64,000 nt of DNA from Blautia sp. OF03-15BH (GTDB taxonomy: Bacteria > Bacillota > Clostridia > Lachnospirales > Lachnospiraceae). The notes beneath the pieces were generated by a model. The model worked only from the letters and a program-made list of their open reading frames with translations. It did not search any database and had not been told where the DNA came from. Shown here piece by piece: positions 1 to 47,381 of this stretch (positions are counted from its first letter, which is position 1; each line of letters opens with the position of its first letter). Made by a program: the position numbers and the translations under genes. Where the stretch lies: NCBI RefSeq assembly GCF_003463065.1, contig NZ_QSCM01000012.1:3954-67953 (forward strand), in the 5' to 3' direction.

Positions 1-36
1 CCCGAGAATCACGATATCCTTTTTTTCTTTCACTTT

Positions 37-4514: not shown

Positions 4515-4700
4515 CTGAAAAAAAGAAACCGGGTATCGGAAAGATACCCGGGACTCATACACATACAGCAGCTTCTGCAGCATTCTTCTCTCATCCAGAC
4601 TATACTGTCGGTTTTGGAATTGCACCAAATCAACCGCTAATCGCGGGTCGCGGACTTTACCGCCGGTGAGGAATCACACCTCGCCCCGAAGAATCTTTTT
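4515..4700 (-). ncRNA. FMN riboswitch (RFN element) with transcription terminator expression platform
   Basis: Minus-strand sequence reads CTTCGGGGCGAGGTGTGATTCCTCACCGGCGGTAAAGTCCGCGACCCG...GGTGCAATTCCAAAACCGACAGTATAGTCTGGATGAGAGAAG, matching the FMN aptamer consensus; followed by CCGGGTATC-TTTCC-GATACCCGG hairpin + U-run (4515-4553); TTGCAA-N17-TATAAT promoter at about 4702-4730. Confidence 0.85.
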
Positions 4701-32654: not shown

Positions 32655-32826
32655 AATCGCTTCCTCCTTTTAAATAAATCTCAGATGACGAAGGTCTTTT
32701 GCCCCCCAACTGATGCCTACGAATTGCTCCGCTGCAAAGCAACTCCCGCAATTCTATAAACATTCGAAATCCGCTGATTTACTACGTAAATCGCTACTTT
32801 CTCATGTTTGGCGGGTCCCAAGTTCA

Positions 32827-32859
32827 AAAGCCTTATCATGCAAGCATGAACGGCTTTTT
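32827..32859. terminator. A-run/hairpin/T-run element downstream of prfB containing 14-mer TCATGCAAGCATGA
   Basis: AAAAGCC-TTATCATGCAAGCATGAAC-GGCTTTTT. Confidence 0.45.
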
Positions 32860-32877
32860 GACCTTTTGACCCTGGCA

Positions 32878-34017
32878 TCATTCTATATCTGTACCGGTAT
32901 CTCCGGCGGACTCACCAAGCGTGATCCACTTCAGATATGCATTGATAAACAGATCGATATTTCCGTCCAGAACACTGTCCACATTTCCTGTCTCTGCACC
33001 TGTACGATGGTCTTTTACCATCGTATAAGGCTGAAGGACATAGGAACGGATCTGGTTGCCCCAGCCGATCTCCTTGACCTCACCGCGGATACCGGAAACC
33101 TTCTCTGCATTCTCCTGCTGTTTGAGAAGATACAGCTTTGCTTTCAGCATCTGCATGGCTTTGTCTTTATTCTGGAACTGGGAACGCTCATTCTGACACT
33201 GTACCACGATACCGGTCGGTATATGTGTGATACGGATCGCGGAAGACGTTTTATTGATGTGCTGTCCGCCGGCTCCGCTGGAACGGTAGGTATCCACACG
33301 GATATCCTCATCTCTGATCTCCACATCCAGATCTTCTTCAATATCCGGCATGACATCACAGGATACAAAGGAGGTCTGCCGCTTTCCTGCCGCATTGAAG
33401 GGAGAAATACGTACCAGACGATGCACTCCTTTTTCTGATTTCAGATAACCGAAGGCATTCTCACCGTTTACCTGGAAGGTGACGGATTTAACGCCTGCCT
33501 CATCGCCGTCCAGATAATCCAGGACTTCCATAGCAAAGCCCTTCTTATCCACCCAGCGGCTGTACATCCGGTAAAGCATACCGCACCAGTCGCAGGACTC
33601 GGTTCCGCCGGCTCCGGCGTGCAATGTGACAATGGCAGCGTTGTTGTCGTATTCTCCGGAAAGCAGCGTCTTCATACGGATATTTTCATATTCCGTGATG
33701 AATTCATCCATATTTGCCTGAATATCCGGCAGGACAGCCGGATCGTTTTCCTCATAACCCATCTCGATCAGAAGCTCGATCTCTTCAAAAAGCTCTGTCA
33801 GATGATGGTAGATCGCGATATCATCTTTCAGGCTTTTCAGCGTCTTCATGCTTTCCTGGGATTTCTCCGGATTATCCCAGAAGTCCGGCTCTTCCATTTT
33901 TCTCTCAAGCTCCTGGACTCTCTGCTCTTTGTTTACCAGATCCAGAGAATCCTTGATCTCCTCCAGGGGCTGTTTGTATGTGCCCAGAGTATATTTAAAC
34001 TGGTCTAATTCAACCAT
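32878..34017 (-). CDS. prfB: Peptide chain release factor 2
   Basis: SPF tripeptide motif and GGQ motif (GAGGQHINKTSSAIR); continuous ORF without the programmed +1 frameshift; ATG 34017 with AGAGGTGG RBS. Confidence 0.9.
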   Translation of the reverse strand: MVELDQFKYTLGTYKQPLEEIKDSLDLVNKEQRVQELERKMEEPDFWDNPEKSQESMKTLKSLKDDIAIYHHLTELFEEIELLIEMGYEENDPAVLPDIQANMDEFITEYENIRMKTLLSGEYDNNAAIVTLHAGAGGTESCDWCGMLYRMYSRWVDKKGFAMEVLDYLDGDEAGVKSVTFQVNGENAFGYLKSEKGVHRLVRISPFNAAGKRQTSFVSCDVMPDIEEDLDVEIRDEDIRVDTYRSSGAGGQHINKTSSAIRITHIPTGIVVQCQNERSQFQNKDKAMQMLKAKLYLLKQQENAEKVSGIRGEVKEIGWGNQIRSYVLQPYTMVKDHRTGAETGNVDSVLDGNIDLFINAYLKWITLGESAGDTGTDIE

Positions 34018-43843: not shown

Positions 43844-44620
43844 ATGATTTTAGCGATCGATATCGGAAACACAAACATCGTCATCGGCTGTATCAAAGAT
43901 GACAAAATTCTTTTTACGGAAAGAATGTCCACGGATTCCAACAAAACAGTTCTGGAATATGCCATCGGTTTTAAGACCGTTCTGGAGCTCTATCACATCC
44001 ATACAGAAGATCTGACAGGCTCCATTATTTCTTCTGTTGTGCCTCCTGTGACCAACACGGTCCGGAAGGCGCTTCATAAGATCACCCACCACCAGGCTAT
44101 GGTTGTGGGACCGGGCATCCGCACCGGCCTGAATATTCTTACGGATAACCCGGCAGTCACCGGTTCCGACCTGATCGTCGGTGCCGTGGCCGCCATCCAT
44201 GAATATCCGGTTCCGCTGATCATCTTTGATTTCGGCACCGCCACGACGGCTTCCGTTGTGGACCGTAAGAAAAATTACATCGGCGGTATGATCATTCCCG
44301 GTATCCGCGTTTCTCTGGACGGCCTGGCAAGCCATGCCTCCCAGTTAAGCCGCATCAGCCTGGATGCGCCGAAAAAGATCATCGGCACAAACACGGCCGA
44401 CTGCATGAAGAGTGGTCTTCTTTACGGAAATGCCGCCATGCTGGACGGTATCGTAGATCGCATGGAGGAAGAGCTTGGCGAACCGGCTACGGTACTTGCG
44501 ACCGGCGGTCTTGCCAGTCTCATCGTTCCCCTTTGCAAAAAGAACATCATCCTCGATGATGATCTGCTTCTTCGGGGACTGAACCTGATCTATAAGAAGA
44601 ATCAGGAACATAATCATTGA
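43844..44620 (+). CDS. coaX: Type III pantothenate kinase
   Basis: 258 aa; MILAIDIGNTN N-terminus. Confidence 0.9.
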   Translation: MILAIDIGNTNIVIGCIKDDKILFTERMSTDSNKTVLEYAIGFKTVLELYHIHTEDLTGSIISSVVPPVTNTVRKALHKITHHQAMVVGPGIRTGLNILTDNPAVTGSDLIVGAVAAIHEYPVPLIIFDFGTATTASVVDRKKNYIGGMIIPGIRVSLDGLASHASQLSRISLDAPKKIIGTNTADCMKSGLLYGNAAMLDGIVDRMEEELGEPATVLATGGLASLIVPLCKKNIILDDDLLLRGLNLIYKKNQEHNH

Positions 44621-44629
44621 ATGTAAAAC

Positions 44630-44675
44630 AAAGCGCCGCAGAATGGATCTGATCTCCGTTCTGCGGCTCTTTTGG
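44630..44675. repeat. Terminator hairpin copy 1 (coaX terminator); 33-bp core identical to the copy at 45294
   Basis: AAAGCGCCGCAGAA-TGGATCTGATCTCCG-TTCTGCGGCTCTTTT. Confidence 0.8.
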
Positions 44676-44812
44676 TATTGGAAAATGAAACAGGCGGGGT
44701 GACACTCCCGCATCTCCTAACAATGGGCGACGGCTGCCCGTTCCGTCCTCAGATTTCATTCCATATACTTTATGCTATTTGCAGTTTCATTATACAAAAA
44801 TCATGGAAAATG

Positions 44813-45190
44813 TCAAGGTTCTACTCTTTTCAATGTCCCCTTCTTGATAAAATTATGAACCCTGTTATGATTTAAAACATATAAGGATCGTGCATAGTAT
44901 TTTCCACTCGAAGCTACTCTTACAGCTACTTTCACGTATTCACTGTCAATCTTAAACTCTTTTACATATTCTATCGAGTCATCTGCCGGATTCCTTCCAA
45001 TGTAATCTGGAAGCCTGATAATCTCCGGTATACAAGAACCATATTTCTGATAATCCTCCCAGTGTCTCGCCTTCATATGTGCAATATTGCTTTGACCCAA
45101 ATAAATCTTTTCATCTCCAGGAATCGTACATCCCAGAAGTCTCTGTATTTTATCTGATATAATTCCCACAACATCCGCTATATAAATCAC
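44813..45190 (-). CDS. PBECR4-like predicted nuclease/toxin domain protein (standalone, 125 aa)
   Basis: Motifs HMKARH...IPEII..PDYI...VKVAVRV...KKGTLK match the phage-Barnase/EndoU/ColE5/RelE-like nuclease 4 family pattern; GTG start at 45190; own TTGATT-N17-TATGAT promoter; AT-richer than flanks. Confidence 0.55.
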   Translation of the reverse strand: MIYIADVVGIISDKIQRLLGCTIPGDEKIYLGQSNIAHMKARHWEDYQKYGSCIPEIIRLPDYIGRNPADDSIEYVKEFKIDSEYVKVAVRVASSGKYYARSLYVLNHNRVHNFIKKGTLKRVEP

Positions 45191-45288
45191 CTTCTGGAAT
45201 TTATCATAACATCAAATGCACTTTTAATCAAGTCTTTTATCTTGTTTTACTTTGCATTTATCTTATGAGCAAAGCGGACACTATTTAA

Positions 45289-45334
45289 AAAGAGCCGCAG
45301 AATGGATCTGATCTCCGTTCTGCGGCGCTTTTTC
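45289..45334. repeat. Terminator hairpin copy 2 (terminator for nahK on minus strand)
   Basis: AAAGAGCCGCAGAA-TGGATCTGATCTCCG-TTCTGCGGCGCTTTTT; 42/44 identical to copy 1. Confidence 0.8.
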
Positions 45335-45343
45335 TACCTTTTC

Positions 45344-46450
45344 TCAGCGGTATTTATTTACGATCTCTTTCATCTTCGGAAGCTTCTCTTCCATATCTTT
45401 TACCAGTTTGAACTGTGTGTGGGCACGGTCCAGATTCTGGTTGTCCCGTGTGGTCTTGAAATAATGGTCACCTTCCAGATAATCGGTGAGGAAACGCATA
45501 CCGCACTCAAAGGTCATCATCATGGCTCCGGTGGGCAGATTGTCCAGTTCGATATCGGTCAGTGCTCCGCCGCAGCCTTCAATAAAGCCTTTGACATAGA
45601 GCTCATAGAGGTCCAGATCGCACCAGATTTTGGAAAGATCCGGCTCGTCCTCGGCTCCTGTGCTGGCACCGAAACGGATGGAATCACCAAAATCATTCAC
45701 TGCCAGTCCCGGCATGACTGTGTCCAGGTCAATGACACAGATGCCTTTTCCGGTGGCATTGTCAATGAGGATGTTGTTGAGTTTGGTATCATTGTGGGTA
45801 ACACGGGTCGGGATCTTCCCGGCTGCCTCCAGGTCACAGAGGGTGTGAGCGAAAGCCTCATGATCCAGAACAAACTGGATCTCCTCTTTTACAGAAGCAG
45901 CTCTTCCGCAAGTATCGGCTGCCACAGCCTTCTGAAAGGTTTCAAAACGCTTTGCCGTGTTATGAAAATCCGGAATGGTCTCATGAAGGGATTTTGCCGG
46001 AAAATCTGCCAGCATACGCTGGAAATGACCGAAGGAAACAGCACTCTCGTAAAAGTCAGAAGGCTTCTCCACCTGATCGTAGCTGGTGGTTCCCTCTACG
46101 AAAAGATAGATCCTCCAATACTGTCCTTCGCTGTCCAGATAATAAGGCTTTCCATCTCTGGAACACACGACTGTCAGAGTCTCCCTTTCCGGATCACCGC
46201 CGTTTTCTTCGCTTTTCTTTTTGATCCACTCCGTTACATGAACAATGTTTTCCATCAGTTCCACGGGTTTTTCAAAAATATTCTTATTCATTCTCTGAAG
46301 GATATAACGACGCTGTCTTTTTTCTGTCTCATAAGTCACGCGGAAGGTATCATTGATATGACCGCTTCCATAGGGCGCCAGTTCCTTCAGCTGTCCTTCC
46401 GGCAACGCAAAAGCTGCCAGAACTTCTGCTGTGATCTGCTCCTTATTCAC
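45344..46450 (-). CDS. nahK: N-acetylhexosamine 1-kinase (NahK/LnpB-like anomeric kinase, APH fold)
   Basis: YILQRMN..IF, RVTHNDTKLNNIL, DFGDSIRFGAST, ECGMRFLTDYLEGD motifs closely parallel recalled B. longum NahK; GTG start at 46450 directly after the upstream stop (TAAGGTG) with GGGAGGAAG RBS. Confidence 0.75.
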   Translation of the reverse strand: MNKEQITAEVLAAFALPEGQLKELAPYGSGHINDTFRVTYETEKRQRRYILQRMNKNIFEKPVELMENIVHVTEWIKKKSEENGGDPERETLTVVCSRDGKPYYLDSEGQYWRIYLFVEGTTSYDQVEKPSDFYESAVSFGHFQRMLADFPAKSLHETIPDFHNTAKRFETFQKAVAADTCGRAASVKEEIQFVLDHEAFAHTLCDLEAAGKIPTRVTHNDTKLNNILIDNATGKGICVIDLDTVMPGLAVNDFGDSIRFGASTGAEDEPDLSKIWCDLDLYELYVKGFIEGCGGALTDIELDNLPTGAMMMTFECGMRFLTDYLEGDHYFKTTRDNQNLDRAHTQFKLVKDMEEKLPKMKEIVNKYR

Positions 46451-46451
46451 C

Positions 46452-47381
46452 TTATGCTTCCTCCCAAAGTTTCTGAGGATATCTTCCCTCATCCTTTAAT
46501 TTCTGAATCGCTGCCACAACCACCGGCTTGTCTTCCTTATAAGTAACGCCGTACCATTTATCTTCGGATTTCAGTACCTCTACCGTAGCTTTCTCCTCTG
46601 CCAGAAGCTCTCCTACCACACTGGGAAGGAAAAATTCACATTTCAAAGGATTCTTCGGAAGGTTTTCCTCCAGGAATTTCGGGAAACGGCTGCCGATCTC
46701 TTTCATGATGCTGTTGGTAAAGCCCCACATATTCATAGACACAATGCTGCCTTCCGGAATGGTGGTCCAGGTAGCTCCGTCATCCTCGGTATAAGCAGTC
46801 ACATCGCCTCTTTTTTCGATATGGGTACGCTCGCAGATGCCTACCAGCTGATGGTTCTCATCGGTGGTGCAGACACCTCTTGCCACATGACCGTTCTCTG
46901 TCAGGGTATTCTCCAGAATATAGCCTACCATGGTGTAACGGTATTTGTCGTCATCCTCATGGGTGGAAAGATAGTCGTAGATTTCCTGGAATGCATGAGG
47001 TCCGTAATAGTCATCTGCATTGATCACGGCAAAGGGACCATCGATCTTATCCCGGCAGCTTAAAATCGCATGCGCGGTTCCAAATGGTTTTACACGACCT
47101 TCTGGAACGGTAAAGCCTTCCGGCAGATCCTCCAGCTCCTGGAACGCATATTCCACGTTCATGATCTTTGCCATACGCTCGCCAATGGACTCTTTGAAAT
47201 CCTTCTCATTTGCTTTCTTGATGATAAAGATTACTTTCTCAAAGCCGGCTCTTTTCGCATCATAAATGGAAAAATCCATAATGATATGACCCTCTTTATC
47301 CACCGGATCGATCTGTTTGAGACCGCCGTAACGGCTTCCCATTCCAGCTGCCATGATTACCAGTACAGGTTTCTTACTCAT
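46452..47381 (-). CDS. Sugar-1-phosphate nucleotidyltransferase (putative UDP-N-acetylhexosamine pyrophosphorylase; GlmU-N/MurU-like)
   Basis: 309 aa; MAAGMGSRYG, FGTAHAI and VINADDYYG motifs resembling GlmU NTase-domain motifs. Confidence 0.65.
   Translation of the reverse strand: MSKKPVLVIMAAGMGSRYGGLKQIDPVDKEGHIIMDFSIYDAKRAGFEKVIFIIKKANEKDFKESIGERMAKIMNVEYAFQELEDLPEGFTVPEGRVKPFGTAHAILSCRDKIDGPFAVINADDYYGPHAFQEIYDYLSTHEDDDKYRYTMVGYILENTLTENGHVARGVCTTDENHQLVGICERTHIEKRGDVTAYTEDDGATWTTIPEGSIVSMNMWGFTNSIMKEIGSRFPKFLEENLPKNPLKCEFFLPSVVGELLAEEKATVEVLKSEDKWYGVTYKEDKPVVVAAIQKLKDEGRYPQKLWEEA

Follow-up and report, generated by a model that had tools for sequence, protein, structure and literature searches.

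What kind of element is the short AT-rich segment that separates two convergent housekeeping genes in a gut Blautia, and why is it bracketed by two copies of the same terminator hairpin? The segment lies between coaX and a kinase gene in a 64,000-nucleotide (nt) stretch of contig NZ_QSCM01000012.1 of Blautia sp. OF03-15BH, a human-gut Lachnospiraceae (hereafter the window, whose first letter is position 1), and an earlier note, made from the sequence alone, had described it as an orphan PBECR4-like toxin gene that inserted into, and duplicated, a bidirectional terminator. We found that this 659-bp unit is a two-gene cassette, composed of a colicin-D-like ribonuclease (RNase) gene and a skipping-rope small RNA, which are arranged on the minus strand in the order weak promoter, RNase gene, strong promoter, structured RNA, and terminator. 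The AT-richness of the interior had already been recognized and corresponds to a G+C content of 0.33–0.40 vs. 0.45–0.57 in the flanks. The anatomy of the cassette and the family assignments of its parts can be given with high confidence, and we lean towards an overall explanation in which the RNase would be a toxin restrained by the RNA and the cassette an old resident of its site that has been lost via the hairpin copies.

The single open reading frame (ORF) of the cassette contains the short amino acid motifs quoted in the earlier note and matches the Pfam family PBECR3 (PF18812) with 84.4 bits (E 7.2e-24, profile positions 3–114 of 115, cut-off 30 bits), followed by a second, weaker match to PBECR2. 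As these were the only families retrieved by the profile search at E <= 0.1, the assignment to PBECR4 (PF18813) had to be dropped, and the identity as a PBECR-family nuclease is borne out at the clade level by the Pfam match and the structure model. This confident model shows a helix followed by a four- to five-stranded sheet, as is characteristic of the BECR fold, and structurally resembles the barnase, EndoU, colicin, and RelE RNases; its best structural neighbours are the transfer RNA (tRNA)-cleaving nuclease (tRNase) colicin D, which is the closest, CdiA-CT toxins, BrnT, and RelE. PBECR domains have been defined by a predicted metal-independent RNase site consisting of a histidine and a threonine or serine (Iyer et al. 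2017, PMC5512222). Since H37 (in helix 32–41 of the model) and the C-terminal T118, both invariant in 34 homologues, match this active-site pair, the protein can be placed in the PBECR clade, and it is best described as a predicted PBECR-family RNase with a BECR fold. Its start codon is uncertain, with possible lengths of 125, 122, or 118 amino acids (aa). RefSeq lists a "PBECR3 domain-containing polyvalent protein" of 118 aa (WP_243005791.1), and the label "transposase" in an older GenBank record (RGX99496.1, 122 aa) is without support, as only PBECR3 and PBECR2 were matched. A search of PDB sequences returned no match to the protein. No ORF for an immunity protein or antitoxin adjoins the gene, as had been stated before, but an RNA gene on the minus strand had been overlooked.

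This RNA matches the skipping-rope motif (Rfam RF02924) over the full length of the model (positions 1–80) with 51 bits, the gathering score being 36.7; the E-value is 5e-11 for a local search and 3e-9 across the whole window. An outer stem, P1, surrounds two 5-bp hairpins, and all three helices are backed by covariation. Among 81 distinct PBECR3-linked copies, both partners have changed in eight of the nine P1 pairs, and pairing is 100% in P2 and P4; 88.8% of the cells are paired compared to 82.7% after shuffling, the observed values were reached in 0 of 500 shuffles, and slid controls gave 34%–56%. Support for the structure is comparative only, with single-sequence minimum free energy folding of the region yielding a z-score of about -0.5. 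A tandem-repeat search of positions 44600–45350 found none, and the RNA is a single structured unit. Its promoter agrees with the consensus at all 12 positions, vs. 9 of 12 for the promoter of the RNase ORF, which is found where the earlier note had located it, and the -35 box of the RNA promoter overlaps the stop codon of the ORF. A promoter of this kind (TTGACN-16..18-TANNNT) lies between the ORF end and the RNA in 80 of 92 homologous RNA-positive modules. The RNA core is nearly invariant in the 81 distinct copies, the proteins being only 50%–65% identical, and 0 of the 22 single-nucleotide polymorphisms found in the module within the species fall inside positions 44668–44845, which comprise the RNA and its promoter.

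According to the main-text account of the motif by Weinberg et al. (2017, PMC5737381), skipping-rope RNAs are in "compelling association" with a protein encoded close by, which may have either orientation; they have a 3' terminator and do not self-cleave. We searched from the protein side and obtained 374 homologues, nearly all of them stand-alone proteins of approximately 120 aa. Linkage was assessed in a sample of 80 homologue loci from genomes of different species (compared loci are labelled with L numbers throughout). The RNA core was found 50–80 nt downstream on the same strand in 71 of them, and a further six contained the RNA above the Rfam gathering score; two loci were cut by contig ends and one was negative. 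Thus, the RNA lies beside the homologous RNase gene in 77 of the 78 evaluable loci, and the supposed orphan gene is one half of a conserved gene–RNA pair. The pair occurs in Lachnospiraceae, Oscillospiraceae, Selenomonas, and on Bacillus plasmids, and it is found in settings typical of toxin–antitoxin (TA) and defence modules: some copies have prophage integrases and HigB-like TA pairs as neighbours, and others are located on mobilizable plasmids. Its arrangement varies. In the prophage loci L026 and L027, the RNA is located upstream of the RNase gene and has its own terminator; the mobilizable Bacillus subtilis plasmid pTA1060 (L205, 5763–6300) carries a "PBECR2 nuclease fold" gene with a convergent, unannotated skipping-rope RNA; and a small mobilizable Planococcus plasmid (L206) encodes a "PBECR2 nuclease fold" protein followed by the RNA (125–132 aa for the genes of both plasmids). 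Because the RNA can thus be upstream and separately terminated, or convergent, the partnership would act in trans.

Two observations on the surroundings of the pair may be added. In one prophage family (L158–L161, 5001–8300), the module is located between the repressor/ImmA region and the integrase and adjoins a Gp49 (HigB-like)/helix-turn-helix TA pair, with the integrase being a tyrosine or a serine recombinase depending on the contig. In the mouse-gut lineage "bacterium D16-50", one assembly (L024) has approximately 100 nt of extra sequence upstream of the RNase gene that is not found in other assemblies; it forms an imperfect inverted repeat of approximately 50 nt with sequence downstream of the RNA (L024 2815–2900 vs. 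L022 2905–2920; L024 3660–3715).

Seen from the RNA side, the linkage is much looser. Among 44 viral-contig loci with the RNA core, the protein is encoded in 18, always upstream on the same strand, and is lacking in 26, and all of the protein-less viral copies tested (14/14) are full-length and above the gathering score. The neighbours of these solo RNAs include a phage integrase, Doc, MazF, Uma2, and HU. Furthermore, in three IMG/VR contigs (L174 5393–6127, L177 4914–6223, and L192 3759–8425), in which no PBECR3 gene is present at the locus, the solo RNA is situated within same-strand phage tRNA arrays. It directly abuts tRNA-Leu(caa) in L192, where the same array contains a drum RNA (RF02958), and L177 also carries a transfer-messenger RNA. 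The association is therefore asymmetric: the protein is nearly always accompanied by the RNA, the RNA often occurs without the protein, and protein-only loci are essentially absent. The variety of unrelated genes beside the RNA and its presence in tRNA arrays would suit a scenario of independent genes, in which the RNA is a self-standing small RNA of phages and mobile elements, the PBECR3 gene a phage-derived "moron", and the cassette a decaying prophage remnant; the position of the cassette outside any prophage and its loss in many strains would fit as well. Chance hitch-hiking, however, is insufficient to explain the near-complete linkage from the protein side, in three relative arrangements and across wide taxa, and we consider this scenario quite unlikely.

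In the mechanism that we propose instead, the weak promoter would drive the small colicin-D-like PBECR3 endoribonuclease, the consensus promoter inside the ORF end would drive the skipping-rope RNA, and the left hairpin would end both transcripts. The RNase would be a toxin, probably attacking tRNA or another RNA of the translation machinery, and the abundant structured RNA may bind it or serve as a pseudo-substrate and thereby suppress its activity. In that case, the two would work together in the manner of a type III TA, addiction, or abortive-infection module. We infer RNase activity, toxicity, and neutralization by the RNA, and hold this antidote mechanism with moderate confidence because the protein has a toxin-type fold, a protein immunity gene is lacking, and the RNA has the stronger promoter. 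The trans-compatible arrangements, a degree of constraint that is higher for the RNA than for the protein, the occurrence of the states both, none, and RNA-only but almost never protein-only, and the typical TA locations point in the same direction. The solo RNA in phage tRNA arrays recalls two known phage strategies, namely pseudo-ToxI as an escape route from ToxIN (PMC3475682) and phage tRNAs as counter-measures to tRNA-cleaving defences (PMC11464382). In a wider, more tentative extension, which we regard as possible, skipping-rope RNAs would be dedicated antidotes of the widespread solo PBECR2/3 tRNase toxins, forming a new toxin/RNA class distributed over prophages, plasmids, and chromosomes, and the solo phage RNAs, some of them within tRNA arrays, would be anti-defence decoys.

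Tight linkage and extreme conservation of the RNA core are expected of any obligate partnership, and the RNA might thus also be a positive partner of the RNase, such as a scaffold, specificity factor, or activator, or its natural substrate, processed as CRISPR RNA is by Cas6. Each of the two similar hairpins could dock one protein, and Weinberg et al. (PMC5737381), in the main text, argue from the complexity of the motif for a "sophisticated biochemical function". A cofactor would not be expected to persist without its enzyme, however, as the RNA does in the sister species described below, in 26 of 44 viral contigs, and in tRNA arrays. In addition, the RNA promoter is much stronger than that of the protein, which is the classic antidote-in-excess arrangement, and the closest structural relatives of the protein are all toxins neutralized by a separate factor. 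A positive role of the RNA is therefore unlikely in our view.

Several points weigh against the antidote mechanism. The RNase protein has no match among the PADLOC models, by which a known defence system is ruled out, and none in the INPHARED phages searched by tblastn. The RNA is not a tandem-repeat array, unlike known type III antitoxins, and the main text of Weinberg et al. (2017, PMC5737381) reports only an association of RNA and protein and no self-cleavage. In the one negative locus of our sample (L035, 3340–3700), a PBECR3 homologue and the RNA promoter are intact and the sequence after the -10 box is unrelated, with no skipping-rope RNA within 2.2 kb; it is the only such evaluable genome locus, and its state could reflect a rearrangement or an assembly artefact of the metagenome-assembled genome. 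Finally, the high conservation of the RNA and its life in phage tRNA arrays could mean that it has a function of its own, to which the RNase is an accessory.

The positions of the cassette parts and of the flanking genes are listed in Table 1. The coaX stop codon ends 9 nt ahead of the left hairpin copy. The kinase gene is convergent with coaX, and the right hairpin copy ends 11 nt before its stop codon. One copy thus follows coaX and the other the nucleoside triphosphate (NTP)-transferase/kinase operon, as had been reported. Elsewhere in the window, we identified on the minus strand a Clostridiales-1 RNA (RF01699, 127 bits, 32711–32880), a structured RNA of unknown function, and a flavin mononucleotide (FMN) riboswitch (RF00050, 116 bits, 4579–4697).

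Table 1. Features of the cassette and its flanks, in window coordinates.
Feature	Position	Strand	Evidence
coaX, type III pantothenate kinase	43844..44620	+	Pfam Pan_kinase E 6e-61; exact protein so named
Hairpin, left copy (AAAGC-core-TCTTTT), predicted bidirectional terminator	44630..44673	both	direct repeat, 13-bp stem, folding
Skipping-rope RNA, Rfam RF02924	44687..44757	-	covariance-model match
RNA promoter TTGACA-16-TATAAT	44789..44816	-	12/12 consensus
PBECR3-family BECR-fold predicted RNase gene, 125 aa from GTG start	44813..45190	-	Pfam PF18812
RNase-gene promoter TTGATT-17-TATGAT, TG-extended	45203..45231	-	9/12 consensus
Hairpin, right copy (AAAGA-core-GCTTTT), predicted NTP-transferase/kinase operon terminator	45289..45332	acts on -	direct repeat, folding
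APH-family kinase ("nahK" of the earlier note)	45344..46492	-	Pfam APH E 2e-19
NTP-transferase gene, upstream of kinase	46452..47381	-	Pfam NTP_transferase E 2e-8

How did the cassette come to lie at this site, and how long has it been there? Contigs encoding an identical CoaX are either filled, with a 723-nt intergenic region and two hairpins (L011, L013, and L018), or empty, with a 64-nt region and a single hairpin (L012, L014–L017, L019, and L020). The difference is exactly 659 bp, and the segment is a discrete presence/absence unit. Although the order coaX–single hairpin–kinase predicted for an empty site was thereby found, presence and absence alone give no order of events, because the single hairpin of an "empty" site can be an excision scar. 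The filled alleles belong to three diverged backgrounds and are interleaved with empty alleles; their modules differ at 8/626 and 15/626 positions, and the flanks at 64 and 144 positions per 6.8 kb. Recent horizontal spread is rejected, as module divergence matches flank divergence. The cassette has no other copies or insertion sites in this species, all contigs with the exact protein showing the coaX/kinase context; the different context of L007, L008, and L010 is only apparent and due to the gene-call strand.

A sister lineage with approximately 12% diverged flanks (L109–L118; L110 3278–3810) has the hairpin and the skipping-rope RNA in the same spacer, so that, together with the parallel divergence of module and flanks, the idea of a recent insertion had to be given up. 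The order in the sister lineage is coaX, a 377-nt segment, the hairpin (with the variant loop TTTTCGT), the RNA, and the kinase stop codon, past which the RNA starts at a distance of approximately 10 nt. Hairpin and RNA together share 92% identity with the window, and the score of the RNA is 49.5 bits; this spacer contains no RNase gene, RNA promoter, or second hairpin. RNA-only is thus a viable state. The 377-nt segment is strain-variable, has its own terminator, and is located exactly at the left base of the hairpin (AAAGCG/.../GCCGCAG); a rearranged or inverted cassette ORF was rejected as its source, as blastn revealed no homology.

Since the sister lineage has the hairpin and the RNA at the same site, the cassette would predate the split of the two lineages, and these sequence comparisons suggest that it has long resided between coaX and the kinase gene in this Blautia lineage. 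Given this age, as indicated by the divergence and the sister lineage, the empty sites would be precise deletions between the hairpin copies, and they are probably secondary rather than the pre-insertion state. The cassette may have been lost repeatedly in this way, by recombination or slippage between the copies, each time leaving a single hairpin behind. A further point against our overall explanation is that the presence/absence pattern could stem not from repeated deletion but from a long-standing balanced polymorphism that recombination has shuffled. Where present, the cassette is maintained and not decaying, because the ORF is intact in all filled alleles with mostly synonymous change (in the most distant allele, nine codons have changed synonymously and three non-synonymously) and the RNA does not vary within the species. 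This purifying selection also argues against the decaying prophage remnant considered above.

The bracket consists of an exact 33-nt direct repeat, GCCGCAGAATGGATCTGATCTCCGTTCTGCGGC, at positions 44635–44667 and 45294–45326, which extends to the 44-nt copies of Table 1 with two mismatches and a spacing of 659; the coordinates and lengths given in the earlier note were reproduced. No third copy of the 33-nt core occurs in the window at <=3 mismatches, and two matches were obtained in 0 of 100 shuffles. In the metagenome and viral contigs searched, the core was present in a single metagenome contig, where it occupies the same locus, and was absent from all viral contigs. As it occurs only twice in the window and elsewhere only at the same locus, a dispersed hairpin family or an element resembling repetitive extragenic palindromes or miniature inverted-repeat transposable elements (MITEs) was rejected.

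As plus-strand RNA, each copy forms a 13-bp stem (including one G.U pair) with a 7-nt loop, lengthened by the flanking AAAG/CTTT. On the minus strand, a C.A mismatch divides the stem into 9 + 3 bp, so that the previous description of a 9- to 12-bp stem with a 15-nt loop holds for this strand but not for the plus strand. Folding energies are -27 (plus) and -24 (minus) kcal/mol for the left copy and -28.6 (plus) and -26 (minus) kcal/mol for the right copy, with z-scores of about -6 for both. The left copy begins 13 nt 3' of the skipping-rope RNA and has the minus-strand tail GCUUUGUUUU; judged by these features, it is the predicted terminator of the skipping-rope RNA and PBECR3 transcripts on the minus strand and of coaX on the plus strand. 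Because a 44-bp duplication of the local bidirectional terminator brackets the cassette, both host operons and the cassette itself would all keep a terminator.

The two mismatches concern the bases that adjoin the 33-nt core, namely C/A at its left end and T/G at its right end. The earlier note had interpreted them as swapped arms; both differences do affect one stem pair, but an exotic mechanism is needless, as the closing pair of this quasi-palindrome is polymorphic in the population. All hairpin polymorphisms (window, L001–L020, and L108) are located at its imperfect positions: the closing pair at empty sites is C-G, A-T, or C.T, and a third polymorphism converts a G.T wobble into A-T. Filled alleles have several closing-pair combinations, the right copy of L001 still being C..G, and the hairpin of the sister species is C..G as well. 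Recombination among filled haplotypes that were observed or can be inferred would be expected to yield the four haplotypes seen at empty sites. Variants at imperfect palindrome positions fit the signature expected of arm-templated (template-switch) mutation or of gene conversion between the copies.

The mode of duplication can likewise only be inferred. The data fit a history in which a duplicated C..G hairpin was altered by substitution, gene conversion, or template switching and the segment between the copies was lost via the repeats. The arrangement in the window would likewise result from a single reciprocal crossover with a circular copy, and an insertion targeting a terminator is possible. 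The left C-core-T and right A-core-G of the window, compared with C-core-G at an empty site, would be the product of one reciprocal crossover inside the core, and excision by recombination between the repeats would release a 659-bp circle containing promoter, gene, RNA, and terminator. Hence the cassette might be, or have been, a mobile element that recognizes terminator hairpins and produces a long target duplication, with a recombinase acting in trans on an integron- or Campbell-like circle. Eight modules elsewhere are flanked by local direct repeats (29–124 nt; shuffled maximum score 12), and the different 377-nt segment of the sister species sits exactly at the base of the same hairpin. 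The cassette, however, is single-copy and restricted to this site, no recombinase is encoded nearby, the divergence of the module tracks that of the host, indicating no recent spread, and the hairpin shows no integron attC-like features by inspection. Flanking repeats are absent from 67/75 genome loci and 29/30 viral loci, and those that exist are heterogeneous (promoters, ORF 3' ends, and dispersed repeats) and often 86%–97% identical. A one-off illegitimate event at a replication-stalling palindrome, e.g. by template switching, with subsequent loss via the repeats, accounts for the data just as well. We therefore regard a hairpin-recognizing mobile element as very unlikely.

The bracketed modules at other loci include L026 (1984–2069/2713–2798), L101 (2886–2959/3570–3643), L094 (2891–2919/3558–3586), L054 (2927–2982/3505–3560), L079, L090, and L103. 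Their repeats measure 29–124 nt, are 86%–100% identical, and represent a promoter, coding sequence, or the 3' end of an ORF together with a terminator; for the prophage repeat of L026, no empty site was found in viral contigs. Long target duplications as a general rule were rejected, given that heterogeneous repeats occur at only 6/75 genome loci, in L026, and at 1/30 viral loci. An insertion sequence or MITE was dismissed because the cassette has no ORF other than the RNase, each genome has a single site, and the duplication spans 44 bp. An integron gene cassette was excluded as well, since the hairpin arms GCCGCAGAATGGA/TCCGTTCTGCGGC lack a GTTRRRY core by inspection and neither an integrase nor a cassette array is nearby.

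The significance of the locus lies mainly in the RNA. Skipping-rope was among several highly conserved bacterial RNAs flagged in 2017 for a likely sophisticated function, none of which was assigned, and in the literature we found no functional study of PBECR3, RF02924, or a type III TA system with a BECR toxin. The locus makes this orphan-RNA question cheaply testable: the partner now has a name (a colicin-D-like RNase), the expression logic looks like that of an antidote in excess, closely related strains provide informative natural alleles (both, neither, and RNA only), and solo copies of the RNA occur among the tRNA genes of phages. Should the RNA neutralize the RNase, the pair would represent a new class of toxin/RNA-antitoxin systems, one with a BECR toxin, and it might also be a new defence/counter-defence pair in gut Firmicutes. 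The hairpin duplication is of smaller, practical value.

Compared with the skipping-rope motif as published (RF02924; PMC5737381), the RNA of the window passes the gathering score and is likewise followed by a Rho-independent terminator. The main text of that study leaves the associated protein unnamed and assigns no function; relative to this account, the present analysis adds the identity of the partner (the PBECR3/PBECR2 clade of BECR RNases), the conserved promoter of the RNA, the asymmetric linkage, and the both, none, and RNA-only alleles. The gene–RNA pair had thus been noticed before but never explained, and the locus is a further member of it. The PBECR domains of polyvalent proteins (Iyer et al. 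2017, PMC5512222) belong to the same Pfam family and have the same predicted His and Thr/Ser site. Their usual state is a fusion to MuF, portal, or large polyvalent proteins, and the domains are thought to be injected against host RNAs; solo phage versions were noted as well. In contrast, the protein described here is stand-alone and 120 aa long; its cassette is lysogeny-side, on a plasmid, or chromosomal and includes a dedicated RNA partner, of which that work makes no mention. The colicin D tRNase with ImmD and CdiA-CT with CdiI are delivered between cells and neutralized by an adjacent protein immunity factor, whereas here a delivery domain and an immunity ORF are lacking and sequence identity is only 10%–14%. 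As a unit, the cassette resembles phage morons in being an autonomous promoter–gene–terminator unit with a G+C content below that of its surroundings, and its loss between direct repeats with one copy remaining resembles repeat-mediated precise excision, as in solo long terminal repeats (LTRs) and the precise excision of transposons. It differs from these in its position between housekeeping genes and in the nature of the repeat, which is neither a short target duplication nor an LTR but a palindromic terminator of 44 bp.

The proposed mechanism is most similar to the type III TA systems ToxIN, CptIN, and TenpIN (PMC5086642, PMC3475682), which also combine a small endoribonuclease-type toxin with a structured RNA antitoxin, both roles being putative here, have no protein antitoxin, produce the RNA in excess, and are found on plasmids, prophages, and chromosomes. 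The order RNA, terminator, toxin in L026 is like that of toxIN, and the RNA-only copies in phages recall escape by pseudo-ToxI. However, the predicted fold is BECR/colicin-D-like and not ToxN/Kid-like, with Pfam matches to PBECR3/PBECR2 only and none in PADLOC. Moreover, the RNA is a single 70–80-nt unit rather than a tandem-repeat array cut by the toxin, and it is located downstream of the gene with its own promoter, its neutralizing activity being putative. With a different toxin fold and no tandem RNA repeats, the cassette is not a member of the type III TA family, even if its proposed mode of action is the same in kind.

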